Positions 15,180 to 58,215 of a stretch of DNA of 64,000 bases are shown here, piece by piece. The notes beneath the pieces were generated by a model. That model had not been told where the DNA came from and did no database searches. It saw only the letters and a list, made by a program, of their open reading frames with translations. Location: NCBI GenBank assembly GCA_964412775.1, contig CAYPPX010000001.1:141473-205472 (forward strand), given 5' to 3'. The position numbers and the translations under genes are program-made. The stretch's first letter is position 1. Every line of letters begins with the position of its first letter. The DNA comes from an uncultured Pseudomonadales bacterium (GTDB lineage: Bacteria; Patescibacteriota; Microgenomatia; UBA1400; PJMF01).

Positions 15180-17108
15180 ATGACTGAAAAAGCAGGTAAC
15201 AAAACCGATAAATCTCCTAACAATAAAAAAGAGCAATCACCAGACAAAAAACTCCCTAAAAACCTCAAAGTTTTTCAGGTTAACATGAACTTAAATGATC
15301 TCTTGAATAAAGGGTTTGTAGCCTTGATTTTATTGTTAATTTTTTGGCCAACTCTTAAGAGTTTGTTTGGTTTTACTCCGACTGAATATATTTCTATTAG
15401 TCAATTAGTTCGTGATGTTCGTGACGAAAAGGTTGAGAAGATTCAAGTTTCTAGTACTGAATTGAGAGGTATTTATAAAGACGAAAGTCGTAAATATGCC
15501 ATCAAAGAAGAAGGTCAACAGGCTTTGTCAGTGCTGGATTATGCTGGAATTGATCTAGCTGCAGTTGATGTTACTGTCGAAAACGTTTCTTTTAGACAAC
15601 TTTTCTGGGAACTGATTATTAATTTCTTACCAATTGGTTTGATGATTTTCTTTTTCTTATTTATGTTCCGCCAAGCTCGGGGCGCTCAAGATGGCATTAT
15701 GGGGATTGGTAAAAGTAAGGCCAAGGTTTTTATCAAAGGTAAACAAAATATTACTTTTGCTGATGTTGGTGGCATGGATGAGGCCAAAAAAGAACTCCAA
15801 GAAATTGTTGATTTTTTGAAGTTTCCTAAAAAATACATCAAAGTAGGGGCAAGAACGCCCAAAGGTGTATTGTTAGTTGGTCCATCTGGTACTGGTAAAA
15901 CTTTATTGGCTCGAGCGGTGGCTGGTGAAGCTAACGTTCAGTTTTTATCGATTGCTGGTTCTGAGTTTATGGAGATGTTAGTTGGGGTCGGTGCTTCTCG
16001 TGTCCGTGATTTATTTGACACTGCTAAAAAATTAGCTCCAGCTATTATTTTTATTGATGAAATTGATGCAATTGGTCGCATTCGTGGCCAAGGGAGCATG
16101 GGTGGTCACGATGAGCGTGAGCAGACTCTCAACCAGATTTTAGTTGAGATGGATGGTTTTGCTCGGAATGAAAACGTGATCGTGATGGCTGCTACCAACC
16201 GTGGTGATATGCTTGATCCAGCTTTAGTAAGACCTGGACGTTTTGACCGCCGAGTAACTGTGTCTTTACCAGATTTAGAAGAACGTAAATTTATCTTAAA
16301 GATCCATGCCAAAGGTAAACCACTAGACAAAGATTTGACTTGGGAAAAAATTGCTAAGCGAACCGTTGGCTTTTCTGGCGCTGATTTAGAAAACATGATG
16401 AATGAAGCAGCAATTGCCATTGCTCGTGAGAATAGAACTGAGATCAATATGGAAGACATTGAAGAAGCTTCAATGAAGGTGAAATATGGTCCAAGCAAAA
16501 AGCGCTTGCATGATGAATATGAGCGTGAAATGACCGCTTATCATGAAGCTGGCCATGCAGTTTTGGCTCATATCTTGCCATATGCTGACCCAGTTCACCG
16601 CATCTCGATTGTTTCTCGTGGACATGCTTTGGGTTACACTTTTACTCCTCCAGAAAAAGATAAAGTTCAATTGCTCAAATCTGAGATGCTTGATGATATG
16701 GTCGTGATGATGGGTGGTCGAGCTGCGGAAATGCTGGTTTATAACGAACAAACCGCTGGAGCTAGTAATGACATTGAACGAGCTACTAGAACAGCCAGGG
16801 CGATGGTGGTGGATTATGGCATGAGTGACTTGGGACCCATGAATTTTGCTCCACAATATGAAACTAATTACTCTAGATCCTGGGGTGAACCACAAAAAAT
16901 CTCAAGTAAACTTCAAGAAAAAGTTGATGCAGAGATTCAAAAATATATTGATACAGCTGCTAAAAAATCGCTTGAATTGCTCAAAAAACACCGTAAAGAG
17001 CTTGATGCTGTGACCAAAAGACTGCTTGAGGTTGAGACTTTGGATGGTGACGAATTTACCAAAGTAATGAACATGCCTAAAGCCAGAAAAGAGCTTAAAA
17101 AAGCTTAA
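15180..17108 (+). CDS. ftsH: ATP-dependent zinc metalloprotease FtsH
   Basis: TM region, Walker A GPSGTGKT, second region of homology, and HEAGHA zinc site. Confidence 0.95.
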
Positions 17109-23902: not shown

Positions 23903-26287
23903 ATGGTTGTTGATTGGTCAAAGTTAAAGAAATTTTTTAATCAGGAAAACAAAACTTTTTGGTTATTTTTCTTAGTATTTATAGTCATCAGATTTTTACC
24001 CTTTATATTCGGTAAAACTCTAGTTTTTGGCGACAATTATTCATTAATGGTGCCTGGTAAAATTTTTACCGCTGAGTGGTTAAAACAAGGAGTTTTTCCA
24101 GCTTGGAATCCCTATGTTTTTAGTGGTATGCCGTGGGTAGCAGACATCAATCAATCAGTGTTTTATCCCAGTACATTGTTATTTATGATTTTTTCACCAA
24201 CTGTAGCTTTGAACTTACTCTTAATCAGTCACGCTTTAATTGCTTATAGTGGGATGTATTTATTAGCAAAAAAATGGTTCAAGGATCAATGGTTGGCATT
24301 ATTGGCTGGTGGTTTATGGATGTTCTCCACCCAAGTTAGTGGCAGTATGAACAACTTTTCAACGCTTCAATCGATTGTCTGGTTACCTTTGCTGTCATAT
24401 TTGGGGTTGGGTTTAGTAAGAGCAGCGAAACAACGAATTTGGTTTGCAATGGTAGTGGCTTTGCAGTTTTTGGGTGGTTACCCACAACACGTGTTGTATG
24501 GCATTGGTTTGGCAGTGTTGTTATCGGTTTTTACAGAAGTTAAAGCTAAAGGTTTTAAGTTATTTAATTGGTTTAATGCTTGGTTTAGCACGGCAATTTT
24601 AGTTTTACTAATTTCAGCTGTTGCTTGGTTGCCTTTTGTGGAGATGTTGTTGAATTCTACTAGAATGGAACAAACAGCCGAGCAAGCACTAGTTGGTTCA
24701 TTGAATCCAGCTATGTTGATCAAGTTTTTCTTAGCTTACTTTTTTGATAACCCAGCAAGTGGGATGAAGTGGGGGCCAGCTTGGAACGGGCAACCTAATG
24801 TAGGGATTTATGTGACGTGGTTGGGTTGGTTGGCGATTGGAATAACTTTTTTGCAAAGTTCATTTGAGTCAAAAAGTTGGCGCCAAAAACCTAATCGTGA
24901 AACAGTTCTATTTTTTGTTTTTACTATTGCTACTTTAGTTTTTTCATTGGGTGAATATTTACCAGGATTTAATTTTATTCAACAAGTTTTTCCATTATTT
25001 AGAATTGCTCGTTATCCCAGCATGGTAATGATTTTGACTAATGTGGTTTTAATTTTATGGACAGTGAAAGCATTGCAAAATTGGCAAATAACTAAACAGC
25101 AATTTAAAGTTTTTTTGAGTTTAGGTTTAACTAGTTTATTAGTTAGCTTGGTGGGCTTGGTGGTGTCGATTTTTGGCTTTGATTGGTTATGGAAAGCAGT
25201 AGACAGTTTCGTTTCTTTTTCGCTTTCAGCTAGTCCCTTTCACACCTTGGAACGAGACAAAATTATTGTATTCGAAATATTAAGAAATATCTTATTTAAC
25301 AGTATTTTTTTCATTGCATCTTTATTATTTTTTTACCAAAAGAAAATCCGAATAGTGGTGATGATCTTAGTCTTGGAAATTTTAGTGAATACCCAAGGAA
25401 TGTTTTATTTTGCACCCAGCCAAATCTATGACACTTTGACAGTAAACTCACAACAATTAATGGCACAAATAGACTTAAAAAAAACCACTAATGACTACCG
25501 AATTTTAACGCGTAATGTGAATCACCCTTATACCGATTATGGTTCATATTGGGAAGCGATGGTGGTGCGTCAGCCGTTCTCTGATTCTTTTGTCGATGAC
25601 CAGGAACTAAAAGAATTTAACCATGTACAAAACTTGCGCGATGGCATGACTCCTAATTGGAACATGGTCTTTGGGGTGCCGACAGTTCATGGTTACACTA
25701 CGCTGCTACCCAAAGATTACGCTCAGTTGTGGCAAACTTCAGCCAGTCCCAGAATTAACTTTATTGATCAAGTGGAACCCACTAATGAGTTGTTAGATCA
25801 CTGGGCAGTCAAATATTATTTAGTTGATCGTTGGTTTGAGGTTGATGAAGATTTAAGTGAATTTAAGCAGGTTGGGACAGTGGGAAAAGTGGAGTTTATT
25901 GGTGGCTCTGGGGAAGTTGAGAACGAGCATCGTTGGCAGATTTTAGAGCGACCAAATGCCTTACCAAGGTTGAGATTTGAAGATGATAGTAATGAGGGTA
26001 TTGAAATTGTTAAGGAAAATCCTAGGAGAGTAGATTTAAAGATTATAAATAATGGTCATGAGTACTTAGTGATGGCTGATCGTTATGATCGTGATTGGCG
26101 GGTGTTTGTTAATGGTAAAGAACAAACAATAGAAAACTTTAATGGGATGAGAAGAGTGGAGTTGGTCAGTGGTGAAAATATTGTTGTTTTTTCATACTGT
26201 CCCAGAATGTTTGTGTTAGGGTTGGTAGTTAGTGGTTTGACAGTTATTGGTGTTAGTTGGTGGTTACTCAGAAATAGATCTAAATAG
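23903..26287 (+). CDS. large polytopic membrane protein, YfhO-like GT-C glycosyltransferase candidate
   Basis: 794 aa. More than 10 TM helices in the N-terminal approx 500 aa, then a large C-terminal extracytoplasmic domain and a final TM. This architecture and the GT2 neighbour match the CsbB/YfhO pairing. Confidence 0.45.
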   Translation: MVVDWSKLKKFFNQENKTFWLFFLVFIVIRFLPFIFGKTLVFGDNYSLMVPGKIFTAEWLKQGVFPAWNPYVFSGMPWVADINQSVFYPSTLLFMIFSPTVALNLLLISHALIAYSGMYLLAKKWFKDQWLALLAGGLWMFSTQVSGSMNNFSTLQSIVWLPLLSYLGLGLVRAAKQRIWFAMVVALQFLGGYPQHVLYGIGLAVLLSVFTEVKAKGFKLFNWFNAWFSTAILVLLISAVAWLPFVEMLLNSTRMEQTAEQALVGSLNPAMLIKFFLAYFFDNPASGMKWGPAWNGQPNVGIYVTWLGWLAIGITFLQSSFESKSWRQKPNRETVLFFVFTIATLVFSLGEYLPGFNFIQQVFPLFRIARYPSMVMILTNVVLILWTVKALQNWQITKQQFKVFLSLGLTSLLVSLVGLVVSIFGFDWLWKAVDSFVSFSLSASPFHTLERDKIIVFEILRNILFNSIFFIASLLFFYQKKIRIVVMILVLEILVNTQGMFYFAPSQIYDTLTVNSQQLMAQIDLKKTTNDYRILTRNVNHPYTDYGSYWEAMVVRQPFSDSFVDDQELKEFNHVQNLRDGMTPNWNMVFGVPTVHGYTTLLPKDYAQLWQTSASPRINFIDQVEPTNELLDHWAVKYYLVDRWFEVDEDLSEFKQVGTVGKVEFIGGSGEVENEHRWQILERPNALPRLRFEDDSNEGIEIVKENPRRVDLKIINNGHEYLVMADRYDRDWRVFVNGKEQTIENFNGMRRVELVSGENIVVFSYCPRMFVLGLVVSGLTVIGVSWWLLRNRSK

Positions 26288-54346: not shown

Positions 54347-54958
54347 ATGAAGTTTAAATTTAAACAATTATTGAGTATTGTTTTTATTGCTGGTTTGGTT
54401 TTTATAACCATGGCTAGCTCTGTTGTGGCGGCCACCTTACAACTAAGTACCGTTTCTGGAAAAGCTGTTGGTCAGACAGTCAATATTAATACTACTGATA
54501 CCACCCCAACCTTAGTTGGTGTTGCTTCGCCAGAAGCTACAGTGGATATTTCTCTAGACGATTTAACTGTAGCAGTTTTGGCTGATATAAATGGTGACTG
54601 GACATATACACCTATCACGGCTTTAGATGATGGCACCCATGATTTATCCTTGGCTTCTAATTTGGAAACTTTGAATTATGTCTTGGTGGTTGATACTGGT
54701 ACCAGTGAAAGTACTACTACAACTACCACTACCACCACTGTTGCTGATTTTGTTGGTGTGGGGGGTGCTACTGAAAGTAGTTCTACGACCACGACATTAC
54801 CAGTCTCTGGTGGTTTGACCAACACTTTTTTAATGATGATGGGTGGGTTGTTTTTGATTGGTTTGGGTTTAGTGACCCAACAGTTTTCGCCAGCGATCAA
54901 CGAGATAGAAGAGACCAGCTTTGAACCAGATCCAACAGATCAAGAACAAACTGGTTAG
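54347..54958 (+). CDS. cell-surface protein with Ig-like domain, poly-Thr linker and LPxTG-like (LPVSG) sorting signal
   Basis: Signal peptide and Big-like domain. T9 run encoded by an ACT/ACA/ACC repeat (54712-54741). LPVSG + hydrophobic segment + charged tail. Confidence 0.55.
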   Translation: MKFKFKQLLSIVFIAGLVFITMASSVVAATLQLSTVSGKAVGQTVNINTTDTTPTLVGVASPEATVDISLDDLTVAVLADINGDWTYTPITALDDGTHDLSLASNLETLNYVLVVDTGTSESTTTTTTTTTVADFVGVGGATESSSTTTTLPVSGGLTNTFLMMMGGLFLIGLGLVTQQFSPAINEIEETSFEPDPTDQEQTG

Positions 54959-56039
54959 ACGAGAGAAAATTAGACTGCCCATGACTGATTACAAGCAAGT
55001 TCTTCAGCAAGAAATTCAAAACCTTAGAGATAGGACTAATAAGGCCTCTCTTCCTGAAGAAATGAAGCTCAAAGTCGATAAAGAGATTGTTTCTTTGGAA
55101 CGGAGTGTAGAGCTTGGTAGTTATGATGAAAAATACGAGAAAGTTTCTCGTTATATCAATTGGATTTTGCAAATCCCTTGGACTAAAGAAACCAAAGATA
55201 ATACTGATATTCAAAAAGCCAAAGATGTTTTTAATAAACATCATTATGGTATGCAGGAGGTAAAAGACCGTTTTTTGGAGTATATCTCGGTACTTAATTT
55301 ACGTCAGGAACAGGCTCCAGAAGCAGATTTTAAAGCTCCGATTTTATTACTAGTGGGTTTGGTGGGTACCGGTAAAACAACTTTTGCTTATTCATTGGCA
55401 GAAGCTTTGGATCGCAAACTAGTTCGTATCCCTTTTGGTGGCATGGGTTCAGCTAAAGAATTGCGTGGCAATTCCAGACTTTTACTTGGTTCTGAACCTG
55501 GTAGAGTGATCAAAGGCATCTGTGAAGTAGGAGTAAGAAATCCAGTGATTTTGTTAGATGAAATTGATCGTGGTGCTGACGAGGCTAACATGGATATTAT
55601 GGGTGTCTTGGTAGAGTTATTAGACCCTGCTCAAAATCACTCTTTTACTGATACCTATGTTGATTACCCTGTTAATCTGAGTCATGCTATCTTTTTGGCT
55701 ACAGCCAACAATACCACCAAGATTGCTACAGCTGTGATGGATCGTATGGAAAAAATTACCATGCCTTCATACACCGATACCGAAAAGATCCAGATTGCTC
55801 AACGCTATATTTTGCCCAAACTTTTATCAGATGCTGGTCTCAAGGATGGTCAGTTTATTATTCGTGACGATGTCTGGCAGATGATTACTCGGCCATTGGG
55901 TTATGACATGGGTATCCGTACTTTGCAAAGAACTTTACAGGGAGCGGTGCGTAAAGCTGTCAGAATTATTGTTGAGCGAGGTTTTCAACAAGTGATCATT
56001 ACTAAAGAAAATGCTAAGATATTTATGCCTAGATATTAA
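54921..56039 (+). CDS. Lon-like AAA+ ATPase lacking N-terminal LAN domain and C-terminal S16 peptidase domain
   Basis: Collinear with LonA from the long helix through the AAA+ alpha-lid: HYGMQEVKDRFLEY, GLVGTGKTT, ILLDEIDRG, LDPAQNHSFTD, LATANN. Ends exactly where the protease domain normally begins. Alternative start ATG at 54981. Confidence 0.7.
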   Translation: MNQIQQIKNKLVRREKIRLPMTDYKQVLQQEIQNLRDRTNKASLPEEMKLKVDKEIVSLERSVELGSYDEKYEKVSRYINWILQIPWTKETKDNTDIQKAKDVFNKHHYGMQEVKDRFLEYISVLNLRQEQAPEADFKAPILLLVGLVGTGKTTFAYSLAEALDRKLVRIPFGGMGSAKELRGNSRLLLGSEPGRVIKGICEVGVRNPVILLDEIDRGADEANMDIMGVLVELLDPAQNHSFTDTYVDYPVNLSHAIFLATANNTTKIATAVMDRMEKITMPSYTDTEKIQIAQRYILPKLLSDAGLKDGQFIIRDDVWQMITRPLGYDMGIRTLQRTLQGAVRKAVRIIVERGFQQVIITKENAKIFMPRY

Positions 56040-56048
56040 AGGAAAGAT

Positions 56049-56504
56049 ATGAGAGATCCGAAACTACAACAAATATTTGATAATTTTTTTCAGGAAGTAG
56101 AAAATTACATTTCTAGTAAAACTTTTGTTAAAGAATCAACGGCTAAAACAAATCTAGATTTAAACCTTGATGACCAGCTTTTTGAGCTTGGAAAAATAAT
56201 TAACGAGGTTTCTGAGCATAAGGAAACAAAAGGAAAATCAATTGAAAACTTGATTAGTTTACTAGAAGGTTTAGGGAGTGTTTTAGAGACAAAAGAAACT
56301 GTTAACTTGGAAGAGATTCTTGCTTTAACTGATAGAGAAAGTTATGAGTCTGAGCTTGATTTATATATTGATAAGTTGAATAGCTTGCAGTCTAGTGCAA
56401 AAGTTGCTAGCATGGATACTGCAAGTAGTTCTGATGATAAGAAGGGTGGAATTGCTTACGCTCTGGATTTATTGAAAAAGTATCGAGCTAAAATTAGTAG
56501 TTAG
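56049..56504 (+). CDS. hypothetical protein
   Basis: 151 aa, acidic and helical. No motif. Confidence 0.4.
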   Translation: MRDPKLQQIFDNFFQEVENYISSKTFVKESTAKTNLDLNLDDQLFELGKIINEVSEHKETKGKSIENLISLLEGLGSVLETKETVNLEEILALTDRESYESELDLYIDKLNSLQSSAKVASMDTASSSDDKKGGIAYALDLLKKYRAKISS

Positions 56505-56525
56505 GAAAGTTAAAAAGGAAATCAT

Positions 56526-57170
56526 ATGGTAGACGGACAAAAACCATTTCTTACCAAAGATATTAAAGACCAATATGGCTCTGAGTCGGCCAAGTCTCGC
56601 ATTGATAAAGTAGCTGAGGCTAAATCAGCTGGCAAAGAAAGAAAACAAGCTCGTGATGAAAAAAGAGCTGAAAGTCGTAGAACTTGGTCTGCTCGTTGGG
56701 ATAAGGTTAAGGAGTTTGGTCAAAAAGTTTGGGATAATGTCAAGCAAGTTGGCGAATGGCCAGGACAAATTGTTGATAGTGCTGATCAGCTAAGAACCGA
56801 TGTTGAAGTTGGTTACCAACAATTTAGAGCTGATCTAAGTGAACAGGCTTTCAATATCACTAACCAGGCTGCTGAGGCAGTAGATCAAGCTGTTGGTTTC
56901 GTTGAGAGTCTGCCTGAAAGAGCTAGAGCAAAAGTAGCCGAGCTTAAACTAATGGCTATGAAAGAGGCTGCTTTAGCTGCTAAATCTTTAATTGATTCTA
57001 TTAATTCAGCTATTGAACAAGGTCAAGAAACACCAGGAGAAGCTGTTGTGACCGCCGCTGATAGAGCTAAGGCTAGTGCAGAAGATCATCGAAAAAAATC
57101 TGAAGCTGCTAGAAGTAACGCCCAAGGATTGGGTAAGCTTAGAGGTTGGTTAAGAGATTTCTCTAAATAG
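56526..57170 (+). CDS. hypothetical coiled-coil protein
   Basis: 214 aa, Ala/Lys/Glu-rich, amphipathic. RBS AAAGGAAATCAT. Confidence 0.4.
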   Translation: MVDGQKPFLTKDIKDQYGSESAKSRIDKVAEAKSAGKERKQARDEKRAESRRTWSARWDKVKEFGQKVWDNVKQVGEWPGQIVDSADQLRTDVEVGYQQFRADLSEQAFNITNQAAEAVDQAVGFVESLPERARAKVAELKLMAMKEAALAAKSLIDSINSAIEQGQETPGEAVVTAADRAKASAEDHRKKSEAARSNAQGLGKLRGWLRDFSK

Positions 57171-57209
57171 TTAGTAAGCTAAATGTTAAAAAATTAATAA
57201 AGGAAAAAT

Positions 57210-57521
57210 ATGAGCCCAACCAAAACCCAACTTTTAGAAGAATTAAAGAAACAGGTAGATGAGCAAACTTATCAAGCATTAGTAACAGAGTTTCAAAATT
57301 TACCTGAGCAACTAACAGCTGATGATTTAGCTAAGGTAGATGCTGTTTTAGCAGAATTAGAGGAGACAGAAAAGATTGCTGCTCACACTTATAACAGATT
57401 AGCAGACACTTTAGATAGGACTGCTGATAAGTTAACTGATGCTGCTGATGAGTTTATTGAAAGATCTGCTCAAGCTACTTATGATAATGCTAAGTTAGCT
57501 AAAGACTTGATGTCAGAGTAG
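57210..57521 (+). CDS. hypothetical small acidic helical protein
   Basis: 103 aa. RBS AAGGAAAAATATG. Confidence 0.4.
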   Translation: MSPTKTQLLEELKKQVDEQTYQALVTEFQNLPEQLTADDLAKVDAVLAELEETEKIAAHTYNRLADTLDRTADKLTDAADEFIERSAQATYDNAKLAKDLMSE

Positions 57522-57545
57522 TTTTTACTAAAGGTTAAATAAAAA

Positions 57546-57570
57546 AAGGGAGCCAACTGGCTCCCTTTTG
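57546..57570 (+). terminator. rho-independent terminator
   Basis: GGGAGCC-aact-GGCTCCC followed by T4. Confidence 0.75.
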
Positions 57571-57585
57571 TGTTATTATCACTAT

Positions 57586-58215
57586 ATGTCGGATAAAGCT
57601 GTTTTGCTTGGGGAATTGCGTAAAAAACTTGAAAAATCTTACCAAACTTTGCCTTTAGCGATCAAAAAAGAAGATTTAGTTCACGGTGAAGGTGATCCTG
57701 AAGCCAAGGTAATGTGTATTGGTGAAGCTCCCGGACGAGAAGAGGCAGCTCAGCGTCGACCATTTGTGGGTCGTTCTGGTCAGTTATTAAGAAAAAAGTT
57801 AACCGAAATTGGTTTGCCACCAGAAAAAGTATTTATTAGTAATATTGTCAAAGTACGGCCACCAGAGAATCGTGATCCAACCCCAACAGAAATCTCGGCT
57901 TATCGACCATTTTTAAACCAAGAAATCGAGATTATTAAACCAGAGATTATTGTTACTTTGGGTAGATTTAGTATGGCAAAGTTTTTGCCAGAAGTAAAAA
58001 TTTCGGAAGTTCATGGTCGGCTACATAAAGTTGTTTGGGAAGGCAGAGATTTATTTATTATGCCGATGTATCATCCGGCTGCAGCTTTACGGGCAACAAA
58101 AATGATGGAATCATTTACCTATGATTTTAAAAAGTTACCTAAGATTTTATCTTGGTTAGCAGAACAAACTAAAACTAATAACTTAAAAGGAAATATTAAA
58201 GACATTTTATTTTAG
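57586..58215 (+). CDS. family-4 uracil-DNA glycosylase
   Basis: GEAPG motif, RPFVGRSG block, and HPAA block. Confidence 0.8.
   Translation: MSDKAVLLGELRKKLEKSYQTLPLAIKKEDLVHGEGDPEAKVMCIGEAPGREEAAQRRPFVGRSGQLLRKKLTEIGLPPEKVFISNIVKVRPPENRDPTPTEISAYRPFLNQEIEIIKPEIIVTLGRFSMAKFLPEVKISEVHGRLHKVVWEGRDLFIMPMYHPAAALRATKMMESFTYDFKKLPKILSWLAEQTKTNNLKGNIKDILF

Follow-up and report, generated by a model that had tools for sequence, protein, structure and literature searches.

A Lon-derived AAA+ ATPase without a peptidase domain in a conserved chromosomal locus of Patescibacteria

The ATPase gene and its Lon ancestry

A stretch of 64,000 nucleotides, in the following called the window, was analyzed (contig CAYPPX010000001.1 of assembly GCA_964412775.1, positions 141,473 to 205,472 of the forward strand). 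The subject of this analysis is a gene for a AAA+ ATPase which is related to the protease Lon and carries no peptidase domain. The window is an ordinary Patescibacteria chromosome segment with a GC content of approximately 38%, which also codes for GroEL, FtsH, DnaK, IF-2, PNPase and SufB. The ATPase gene is contained in the first of four open reading frames on the + strand (54921–56039, 372 amino acids if read from a TTG codon; 56049–56504; 56526–57170; 57210–57521). It comprises the following features.

54981–56039, + strand: coding sequence of the peptidase-less Lon-type AAA+ ATPase, 352 amino acids, ATG start, stop codon included
54921–54980, + strand: spurious N-terminal extension of 20 codons (TTG), outside the range matched by homologues (95% query coverage)
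54981–55316, + strand: N-terminal helical region, i.e., the end of the long LonA helix and the three-helix bundle of the N-terminal domain (NTD), corresponding to E. coli Lon residues ~241–350
55356–55379, + strand: Walker A, GLVGTGKT; G, G, G, K and T invariant in 184/184 family sequences
55464–55502, + strand: degenerate pore-loop-1, RGNSRLLLGSEPG; the counterpart in canonical LonA is RGHRRTY[IV]G[SA]MPG
55548–55568, + strand: Walker B, ILLDEID; D423/E424 equivalents invariant
55620–55646, + strand: LDPAQNHSF motif
55710–55745, + strand: sensor-1 Asn (55710–55712) and trans-acting arginine finger (55743–55745), equivalents of N473 and R484
55917–55919, + strand: sensor-2 Arg in the Lon lid, R542 equivalent, 100% conserved
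56013–56036, + strand: C-terminal tail AKIFMPRY, where a peptidase domain would start; aligned with E. coli NLHDYLGVQ

The start codon was assigned by comparison with homologues. Nearly all of the 120 homologue clusters listed for the ATPase (74–100% identity) are 351–354 amino acids long, mostly exactly 352. Among the matches listed, the clusters align from residue 21 of the 372-residue query and begin with MTDYKQ or MSDYK. Because the homologues match from residue 21 and the upstream extensions of the open reading frame vary from genome to genome, the gene starts with the ATG at 54981 (MTDYKQ...). This codon lies 22 nt past the stop of the upstream gene (54958), and therefore the ATPase gene does not overlap the gene for a surface protein with an LPVSG motif. 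The overlap described in an earlier note on this DNA was an artefact of the TTG start. A database entry with 100% identity is labelled 'AAA family ATPase [Candidatus Pacebacteria bacterium]'.

The ancestry of the protein was determined by profile, sequence and structure comparisons. The NCBIfam model TIGR00763 'lon' (endopeptidase La) matched the ATPase with E=5.5e-92, covering only model positions 248–572 of 795; the score of 309.5 bits is half of the cut-off of 608.05 bits and thus below the curated whole-protein threshold. Pfam revealed AAA and Lon_lid and nothing else, the latter with 26.2 bits slightly below its cut-off of 27 bits. All 32 PDB sequence matches (32/32) are LonA or mitochondrial Lon (LONP1) and span the whole query. 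The AlphaFold model (pLDDT 90, pTM 0.85) superposes on LonA chains at TMq 0.77–0.87 and is approximately co-extensive with the laboratory AAA+ fragment of E. coli Lon, 6n2i (TMq 0.85, TMt 0.89). Helices of the N-terminal region were predicted in this model for residues 2–21, 26–45, 49–64, 77–87 and 92–111. In the alignment with E. coli Lon the ATPase extends from approximately residue 241 to approximately residue 588, the junction between AAA+ module and peptidase domain. Thus, the ATPase is derived from LonA and reduced to the NTD three-helix bundle, the AAA+ alpha/beta domain and the Lon lid.

The missing domains were searched for with several methods. In Pfam neither Lon_C (the S16 Ser-Lys peptidase; S679/K722) nor LON_substr_bdg was matched by the ATPase, and a scan of the window for the S16 motif gave no match. 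Profiles of Lon_C, LAN and AAA were made from 70 full-length LonA representatives and run on all stop-to-stop segments of the six reading frames, in the window as well as in 93 related loci (94 sources, 940 kb). The AAA profile recovered the ATPase gene in all 94 sources. The Lon_C and LAN profiles gave zero matches at E≤0.01 in the six frames of these 940 kb, by which a frameshift or a split gene nearby was ruled out, and no peptidase gene was found near the ATPase gene in 94/94 neighbourhoods examined. An open reading frame of 794 amino acids at 23903–26287 was considered as a full Lon and rejected, since it codes for a YfhO-like membrane protein; the other AAA+ protease of the window is FtsH (15180–17108).

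From the letters of the sequence the earlier note had proposed a protein derived from Lon and not a generic AAA+ ATPase, with the motifs GLVGTGKT, ILLDEID and LDPAQNHSF, a C-terminus right at the transition from the AAA+ module to the peptidase, a missing LAN domain, and no peptidase in any frame. All of this was borne out by the results above. The note had also allowed for a frameshift or an assembly error; this objection failed on the 352-residue architecture, which is constant in more than 100 clusters and at least 119 loci.

The peptidase-less clade and its pore loop

The distribution of the ATPase was investigated by scanning one genome per GTDB species. At least 119 loci encode a relative, and the best 80 of them are full-length with 69–88% identity. 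Consequently, the gene is not the oddity of a single genome; it represents a conserved family. All scanned loci are from Pacebacteria, Microgenomates, Woesebacteria or 'Patescibacteria group' bins. Many third-party metagenome assemblies titled 'uncultured Pseudomonadales bacterium' (L009, L015, L016, L018 and dozens more) carry the gene in typical Patescibacteria synteny, and the same is true of individual bins named Limisphaerales, Methylococcaceae, Vitreimonas and 'candidate division TM6' (CP011212.1). All of these bins look taxonomically mislabelled.

The family is strongly conserved. With a median identity to the window of 73% the ATPase ranks highest among the genes compared in the same loci (UDG, i.e., uracil-DNA glycosylase, 58%; RNase J 56%; PfkB 47%), and in an alignment of 184 unique family sequences 135 of 352 columns are at least 98% conserved. 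An exhaustive search among 50%-identity representatives additionally revealed about 20 divergent single-module proteins of 343–669 amino acids (264–357 bits). Canonical full-length LonA proteins all scored below them in the same search, at 250 bits or less. All scanned divergent members have AAA and neither Lon_C nor LAN; Lon_lid is present as well, except in P0172. When the divergent members served as a profile query, 120 further proteins of 342–462 amino acids with the same architecture were retrieved, which carry the names Dojkabacteria, Nomurabacteria and Patescibacteria.

Neighbour joining on the shared region united 22 peptidase-less representatives in a single clade (bootstrap 84/100), outside which canonical LonA was placed; the 352-residue family itself is supported by 100/100. 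The nearest full-length Lons are those of Veillonellaceae, Clostridiales (Firmicutes), Deinococcus and Desulfobacteraceae with approximately 40% identity. A recent truncation of a Lon from the candidate phyla radiation (CPR) was therefore rejected, as the closest full-length Lons are non-CPR proteins at this distance. Because the peptidase-less proteins form one clade and the nearest full-length Lons are only about 40% identical, the peptidase loss is old and was probably a single event. Judged by sequence, the ATPase belongs to an old, monophyletic, Patescibacteria-wide clade without peptidase, which comprises Pacebacteria/Microgenomates, Dojkabacteria and Nomurabacteria. No curated family covers this clade of Lon-type AAA proteins. 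Its members are annotated as 'AAA family ATPase' (NCBI) or as 'ATP-dependent Lon protease' (JGI). The latter labels are misleading, and any proteolytic capacity of CPR genomes inferred from them would be wrong.

The C-terminal tails of the clade are conserved, with KIF[LM]PxY in the 352-residue family and DQGPLS, GIGTLS, DIGVYS and KYYLPK in other lineages (P0312–P0430). Some of these tails are similar to the docking motifs (hydrophobic-Tyr-X) of proteasomal ATPases. The searches also returned Lon proteases of 900–1,700 amino acids (P0121–P0129 and others) with 2–3 tandem AAA+/Lon_lid modules in front of a single S16 domain, among them P0122 from a Dependentiae bacterium (1,113 amino acids, three modules). 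Another match, of 3,865 amino acids, has two matched stretches. The usual description of Lon is that of a AAA+ protease with a single ring, and the multi-module Lons may be an undescribed architecture. They had been considered as a sign of ATPase stacking on Lon. This idea was dropped, since their scores are sums over 2–3 modules; one of them is from Dependentiae, and they were placed outside the peptidase-less clade.

In order to compare ATPase site and pore loop, residues were read from the 352-residue family (n=184), the wider clade (n=135) and canonical LonA (n=70). Residue numbers and roles follow a cryo-electron microscopy study of Yersinia pestis Lon (PMC7239648). The residues of ATP binding and hydrolysis, K362, D423, E424, N473, R484 (the trans-acting arginine finger) and R542, are present at 100% in family, wider clade and LonA. 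The trans-acting bridging glutamate E447 is retained in 70% of LonA and 75% of the wider clade, and is replaced by Ala in 92% of the family. Y294 of the NTD three-helix bundle is kept throughout the clade (YINW at 55152–55163 in the window). W297 is kept in the family and most of the wider clade, with a spread similar to that in LonA itself.

The pore-loop-1 exhibited a different picture. In LonA the motif RRTY[VI]G is near-invariant (position 396 is R or K, position 399 is V, I or L). The window has SRLLLG and the family SRL[LIVYF]L[GE], without a conserved aromatic residue. At the flanking position R395, invariant in LonA (100%), the family has S (92%) or T (8%) and the wider clade S or P. 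At T397, equally invariant in LonA (100%), Leu was found throughout the family (100%) and A, Y, V, T or S in the wider clade. The aromatic residue Y398, present in all LonA sequences (70/70), corresponds to L (47%), I (21%), V (9%), Y (9%) or F (4%) in the family and to S (25%), F (22%), Y (18%), E (7%), N (6%) or L (6%) in the wider clade. The glycine G400 (97% in LonA) is G (78%) or E (21%) in the family and D (67%), E (15%) or G (14%) in the wider clade. In these alignments the pore-loop-1 translocation motif is degenerate across the whole peptidase-less clade. The loss of the peptidase thus coincides with relaxed constraint on the substrate-threading element, while the ATPase engine, with its contact between subunits, is fully constrained.

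Genes surrounding the ATPase

The neighbouring genes and features of the window are the following.

54347–54958, + strand: upstream surface protein of 203 amino acids with an LPVSG motif (Pfam Big_13); optional neighbour, no overlap with the ATPase gene
56049–56504, + strand: acidic orphan protein of 151 amino acids, isoelectric point (pI) 4.7, no family match; lineage-specific cargo
56526–57170, + strand: basic orphan protein of 214 amino acids, pI 9.0, predicted helical; lineage-specific cargo
57210–57521, + strand: acidic orphan protein of 103 amino acids, pI 4.35, sub-threshold Pfam matches only; lineage-specific cargo
57544–57569, no strand: GC-rich hairpin of 11 bp, terminator-like on both strands
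57586–58215, + strand: family-4 UDG, TIGR00758 168.7 bits versus a cut-off of 125.3; probable ATG at 57586

The surface protein was found upstream of the ATPase gene in only some loci, with 27–63% identity. It exhibits a signal-peptide-like N-terminus, a Big_13 Ig-like domain, a poly-Thr linker, the LPVSG sortase-like motif and a hydrophobic segment. Its C-terminus is a long acidic tail, in contrast to the short basic tail usual in sortase substrates.

For the three small proteins no significant match was obtained in Pfam, NCBIfam, PHROGs and PADLOC. A WXG100/DUF6317-like identity of the 103-residue protein (E=0.0022) fell short of the cut-off, and a phage origin of the small genes was discarded with no meaningful PHROG matches. 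The 214-residue protein has two detected homologues among 5.8 billion proteins; its AlphaFold model is all-helical and unreliable (pLDDT 45). The earlier note had described all three as acidic or coiled-coil proteins without motifs. They indeed exist with the given lengths and without family match, but the 214-residue protein is basic.

The ATPase stop is followed after a gap of only 9 nt by the 151-residue gene, no terminator-like site lies between them, and the hairpin follows the third small gene. The small genes are probably co-transcribed with the ATPase gene in this genome. The operon-like arrangement and the terminator proposed in the earlier note were thus found, but as a lineage-specific and not a conserved trait. 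The cassette of three genes was seen only in L006/L010, which are one genome, and in L007/L008/L017. The identities in L006 and L007 are 25–27% for the 151-residue, 48–51% for the 214-residue and 57–60% for the 103-residue protein, versus 85–88% for the ATPase. No cassette was found in the relatives whose ATPase is at most 80% identical (more than 70 loci, including L001–L005) or in distant lineages, and none was detected in L009 and L011 with 88% and 84% ATPase identity. In relatives with 80% and 77% ATPase identity the ATPase gene is directly followed by UDG, RNase J and FtsK genes.

The slot between the ATPase and UDG genes (56040–57585 in the window) is a hot spot for variable cargo and is empty in most genomes. 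In L009:5057-7512 and L011:5057-7893 it contains a helical protein of 678–757 amino acids and an acidic one of 67–69 amino acids, and in L058:5057-6295 an orphan of 379 amino acids. The genes in L054:5057-6836 are toxin-antitoxin-like by the look of their sequences only, no family library having been consulted. Weak, roughly collinear similarity was observed between the cassette and the 757-residue slot protein of L011 (E 1e-6 to 7e-4, calculated without composition correction). The cassette and the long slot protein may therefore be split and fused versions of one fast-evolving gene. The three small genes are a fast-evolving, lineage-specific insertion in this variable slot.

The next conserved neighbour downstream is the UDG gene. 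The UDG neighbours are genuine family-4 enzymes (TIGR00758 169–209 bits, cut-off 125). In the window the UDG open reading frame was listed from a TTG at 57568, which lies inside the hairpin; the ATG at 57586 (MSDKAVL...) is the more plausible start. In the region inspected by eye this UDG has a single cysteine, and it may lack the ligands of the Fe-S cluster that are typical of family-4 UDG.

A UDG gene follows the ATPase gene in 58 of 80 Pacebacteria-type loci, in 40 of them within 150 nt; approximately 17 such loci with sufficient downstream sequence have none. The loci of Dojkabacteria (L090) and Nomurabacteria (L091) exhibit the order NusA, IF-2, S15, PNPase, ATPase, UDG and RNase J, with FtsK also present in L091. 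The surroundings are rearranged in L092 and L094, and UDG still follows the ATPase with overlaps of 1 nt and 4 nt, respectively, of the stop and start codons. In L093 no UDG lies beside the ATPase gene. Upstream genes of that locus (L093:301-5869) code for FolD, SHMT, ThyX and dCTP deaminase, i.e., for dUMP/dTMP metabolism, which may be fortuitous or point to another connection with the handling of uracil and thymine. The ATPase gene is a strongly constrained housekeeping gene of the chromosome and lies in a conserved backbone with the ancestral order nusA-infB-rpsO-pnp-[ATPase gene]-udg-rnj-ftsK. A role as an anti-phage defence ATPase was rejected, as PADLOC gave only weak generic AAA matches of at most 38.6 bits. 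A defence-island setting was rejected likewise, because the gene lies in a conserved housekeeping backbone.

Possible function and relation to known systems

We consider it reasonably probable, although far from settled, that the ATPase is a ring-forming, ATP-hydrolysing, non-proteolytic derivative of Lon which performs no canonical processive threading and has a non-degradative job, the small genes being cargo. We infer ring assembly because an arginine finger functions only between subunits; with this residue conserved, the ATPase would form a ring and hydrolyse ATP. It would no longer be a processive translocase that feeds a proteolytic chamber, and its ATP-driven conformational cycling would serve a non-degradative job. 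Chaperone-like remodelling or anti-aggregation would be the most likely one and is the most economical guess by analogy with LONP1, whose anti-aggregation activity requires its ATPase and not its protease (PMC8368198; see also PMC7801493). The three small proteins would be incidental, co-transcribed cargo in this genome and not dedicated partners.

Several observations weigh against this interpretation. In about two thirds of the wider clade position 397 or 398 is still aromatic, and the 352-residue family keeps hydrophobic residues there, so that some gripping of polypeptides may persist. A 2026 preprint (10.64898/2026.05.06.723147) assigns the anti-aggregation activity of LONP1 to its N-domain, independently of the ATPase, and a LONP1-type N-domain is absent from the 352-residue ATPase. 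The remodeller role is reasoned from the LONP1 analogy, and the formation of a ring without the peptidase domain is assumed. The neighbour-joining tree was built on simple distances and its support for the clade is moderate (84/100). Moreover, the frequent and sometimes translationally coupled adjacency of UDG hints at a role with nucleic acids, which the remodeller model leaves unexplained.

The earlier note had suggested an unfoldase or an ATPase that partners with a separately encoded peptidase. A protease-less ATPase was indeed found, but both suggestions were weakened by the degenerate pore-loop-1 and by the lack of a peptidase in 94 neighbourhoods. A split Lon, in which the ATPase ring docks on a separately encoded S16 or other peptidase and drives proteolysis as in ClpX-ClpP or HslU-HslV, would agree with a protein that ends exactly at the AAA+/peptidase junction, with its intact ATPase residues and NTD three-helix-bundle contacts, and with its conserved C-terminal tails, which recall the docking tails of HslU and proteasomal ATPases. 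However, split genes usually remain adjacent, and no S16 or LAN sequence was present in any frame of the 94 neighbourhoods (940 kb) across the clade; feeding a peptidase would require the pore-loop-1 motif, which is degenerate, and the clade is old and monophyletic instead of resulting from a recent fission. Because of the pore-loop decay and the missing nearby peptidase we regard a split Lon as improbable. The idea of the earlier note that the three small proteins are partners or substrates did not hold, as the cassette occurs in two lineages only and the slot is otherwise empty or filled with other cargo. A dedicated system of the ATPase and these helical proteins as partners, adaptors or substrates would fit the 9-nt gap, the lack of a terminator-like site between the genes, the hairpin after the third gene and the same arrangement in L006/L010 and L007/L008/L017. 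It is nevertheless highly unlikely and already largely refuted by the gene distribution: the cassette is missing in all relatives with ATPases of at most 80% identity (more than 70 loci) and in distant lineages, other proteins fill the slot in L009/L011, the small proteins diverge far faster than the ATPase (25–60% versus 85–88% identity), and only two homologues of the 214-residue protein could be detected among 5.8 billion proteins.

An association with DNA, in which the ATPase works with the downstream family-4 UDG, e.g., in its turnover or loading on DNA, and not as a general protein remodeller, is doubtful, though it deserves slightly more weight than a split Lon. Lon proteins bind DNA, and PDB entry 6n2i was titled 'DNA-binding ATP-dependent protease La' by its depositors. 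The neighbour is a genuine family-4 enzyme and lies next to the ATPase gene in 58/80 Pacebacteria-type loci (40 within 150 nt) and in 4/5 deeply divergent lineages with otherwise different contexts, with overlapping codons in L092 and L094; the ThyX and dCTP deaminase genes of L093 also belong to uracil/thymine metabolism. On the other hand, the pair is not obligate (approximately 17 loci with enough sequence and L093 have no UDG), the whole pnp-...-rnj-ftsK backbone is syntenic so that the adjacency may be inherited gene order, in the window the two genes are not contiguous, with three unrelated genes and a hairpin in between, and no sequence feature of the ATPase points to DNA binding. The case for a UDG partner is one of adjacency. 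The further step to a dedicated partner, with which UDG would form a Patescibacteria-specific, AAA+-assisted base-excision-repair module (e.g., for product release or DNA loading), is speculative and improbable; if true, the ancestral DNA-binding capacity of Lon would have been kept, and proteolysis and polypeptide threading discarded. Finally, the JGI label 'ATP-dependent Lon protease' for a protein without peptidase, which NCBI calls only 'AAA family ATPase', might raise the suspicion of an artefact, namely a lon pseudogene with a frameshift or truncation, or a generic AAA+ protein wrongly taken for a Lon relative. This has practically no probability in view of the constant length of approximately 352 amino acids in more than 100 clusters from independent assemblies, the 135/352 columns conserved at 98% or more, the lack of any peptidase remnant in any frame and the very strong Lon-specific matches.

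A non-proteolytic Lon derivative with a non-degradative job remains the interpretation which we favour. The family is a natural, ancient and strongly conserved protease-free Lon ATPase found in much of the Patescibacteria (CPR), a group with reduced genomes in which few dispensable genes are kept. It is a natural experiment on what the Lon motor does once degradation is gone, and it is a candidate for a lineage-defining housekeeping factor in organisms whose proteostasis is essentially unstudied. In published classifications every Lon is regarded as an ATPase fused to a protease. According to a review of Lon classification all Lons have both ATPase and protease domains (PMC9569914), and a term search of its text revealed no mention of peptidase-less forms. 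Literature searches of incomplete coverage, which therefore do not prove novelty, returned nothing that links CPR/Patescibacteria with Lon protease and nothing relevant on peptidase-less Lon.

Among the known systems LONP1 is comparable in its chaperone-like activity, which demonstrates that a Lon ATPase can do non-degradative work (PMC8368198, PMC7801493). Unlike in the ATPase described here, that activity belongs to a full-length Lon, and the preprint cited above places it in the N-domain which is absent here. The closest match is the NTD three-helix bundle plus AAA+ module of LonA (endopeptidase La, MEROPS S16; E. coli, B. subtilis, T. thermophilus, LONP1). The ATPase is collinear with E. 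coli Lon residues ~241–588 at 33–40% identity, has the same fold (TMq up to 0.87) and shares Walker A and B, sensor-1, arginine finger, sensor-2, Lon lid and the Y294/W297 contacts. It differs from LonA in the absence of LAN and of the Ser-Lys peptidase, in the degenerate pore-loop-1 and in E447, which is Ala in 92% of the family. ClpX and HslU belong to the same HCLR clade of AAA+ proteins and are likewise single-module ATPases without a fused peptidase. They keep conserved aromatic pore loops and dock on ClpP and HslV, which are usually encoded alongside, whereas the present ATPase has a degenerate pore loop and lacks a peptidase gene in its vicinity. LonC, another natural relative of Lon, has likewise given up one of the two activities. 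It is reported to keep the protease and to lack ATP-powered unfolding; the ATPase described here, with its intact ATPase and its lost peptidase, is the mirror image.

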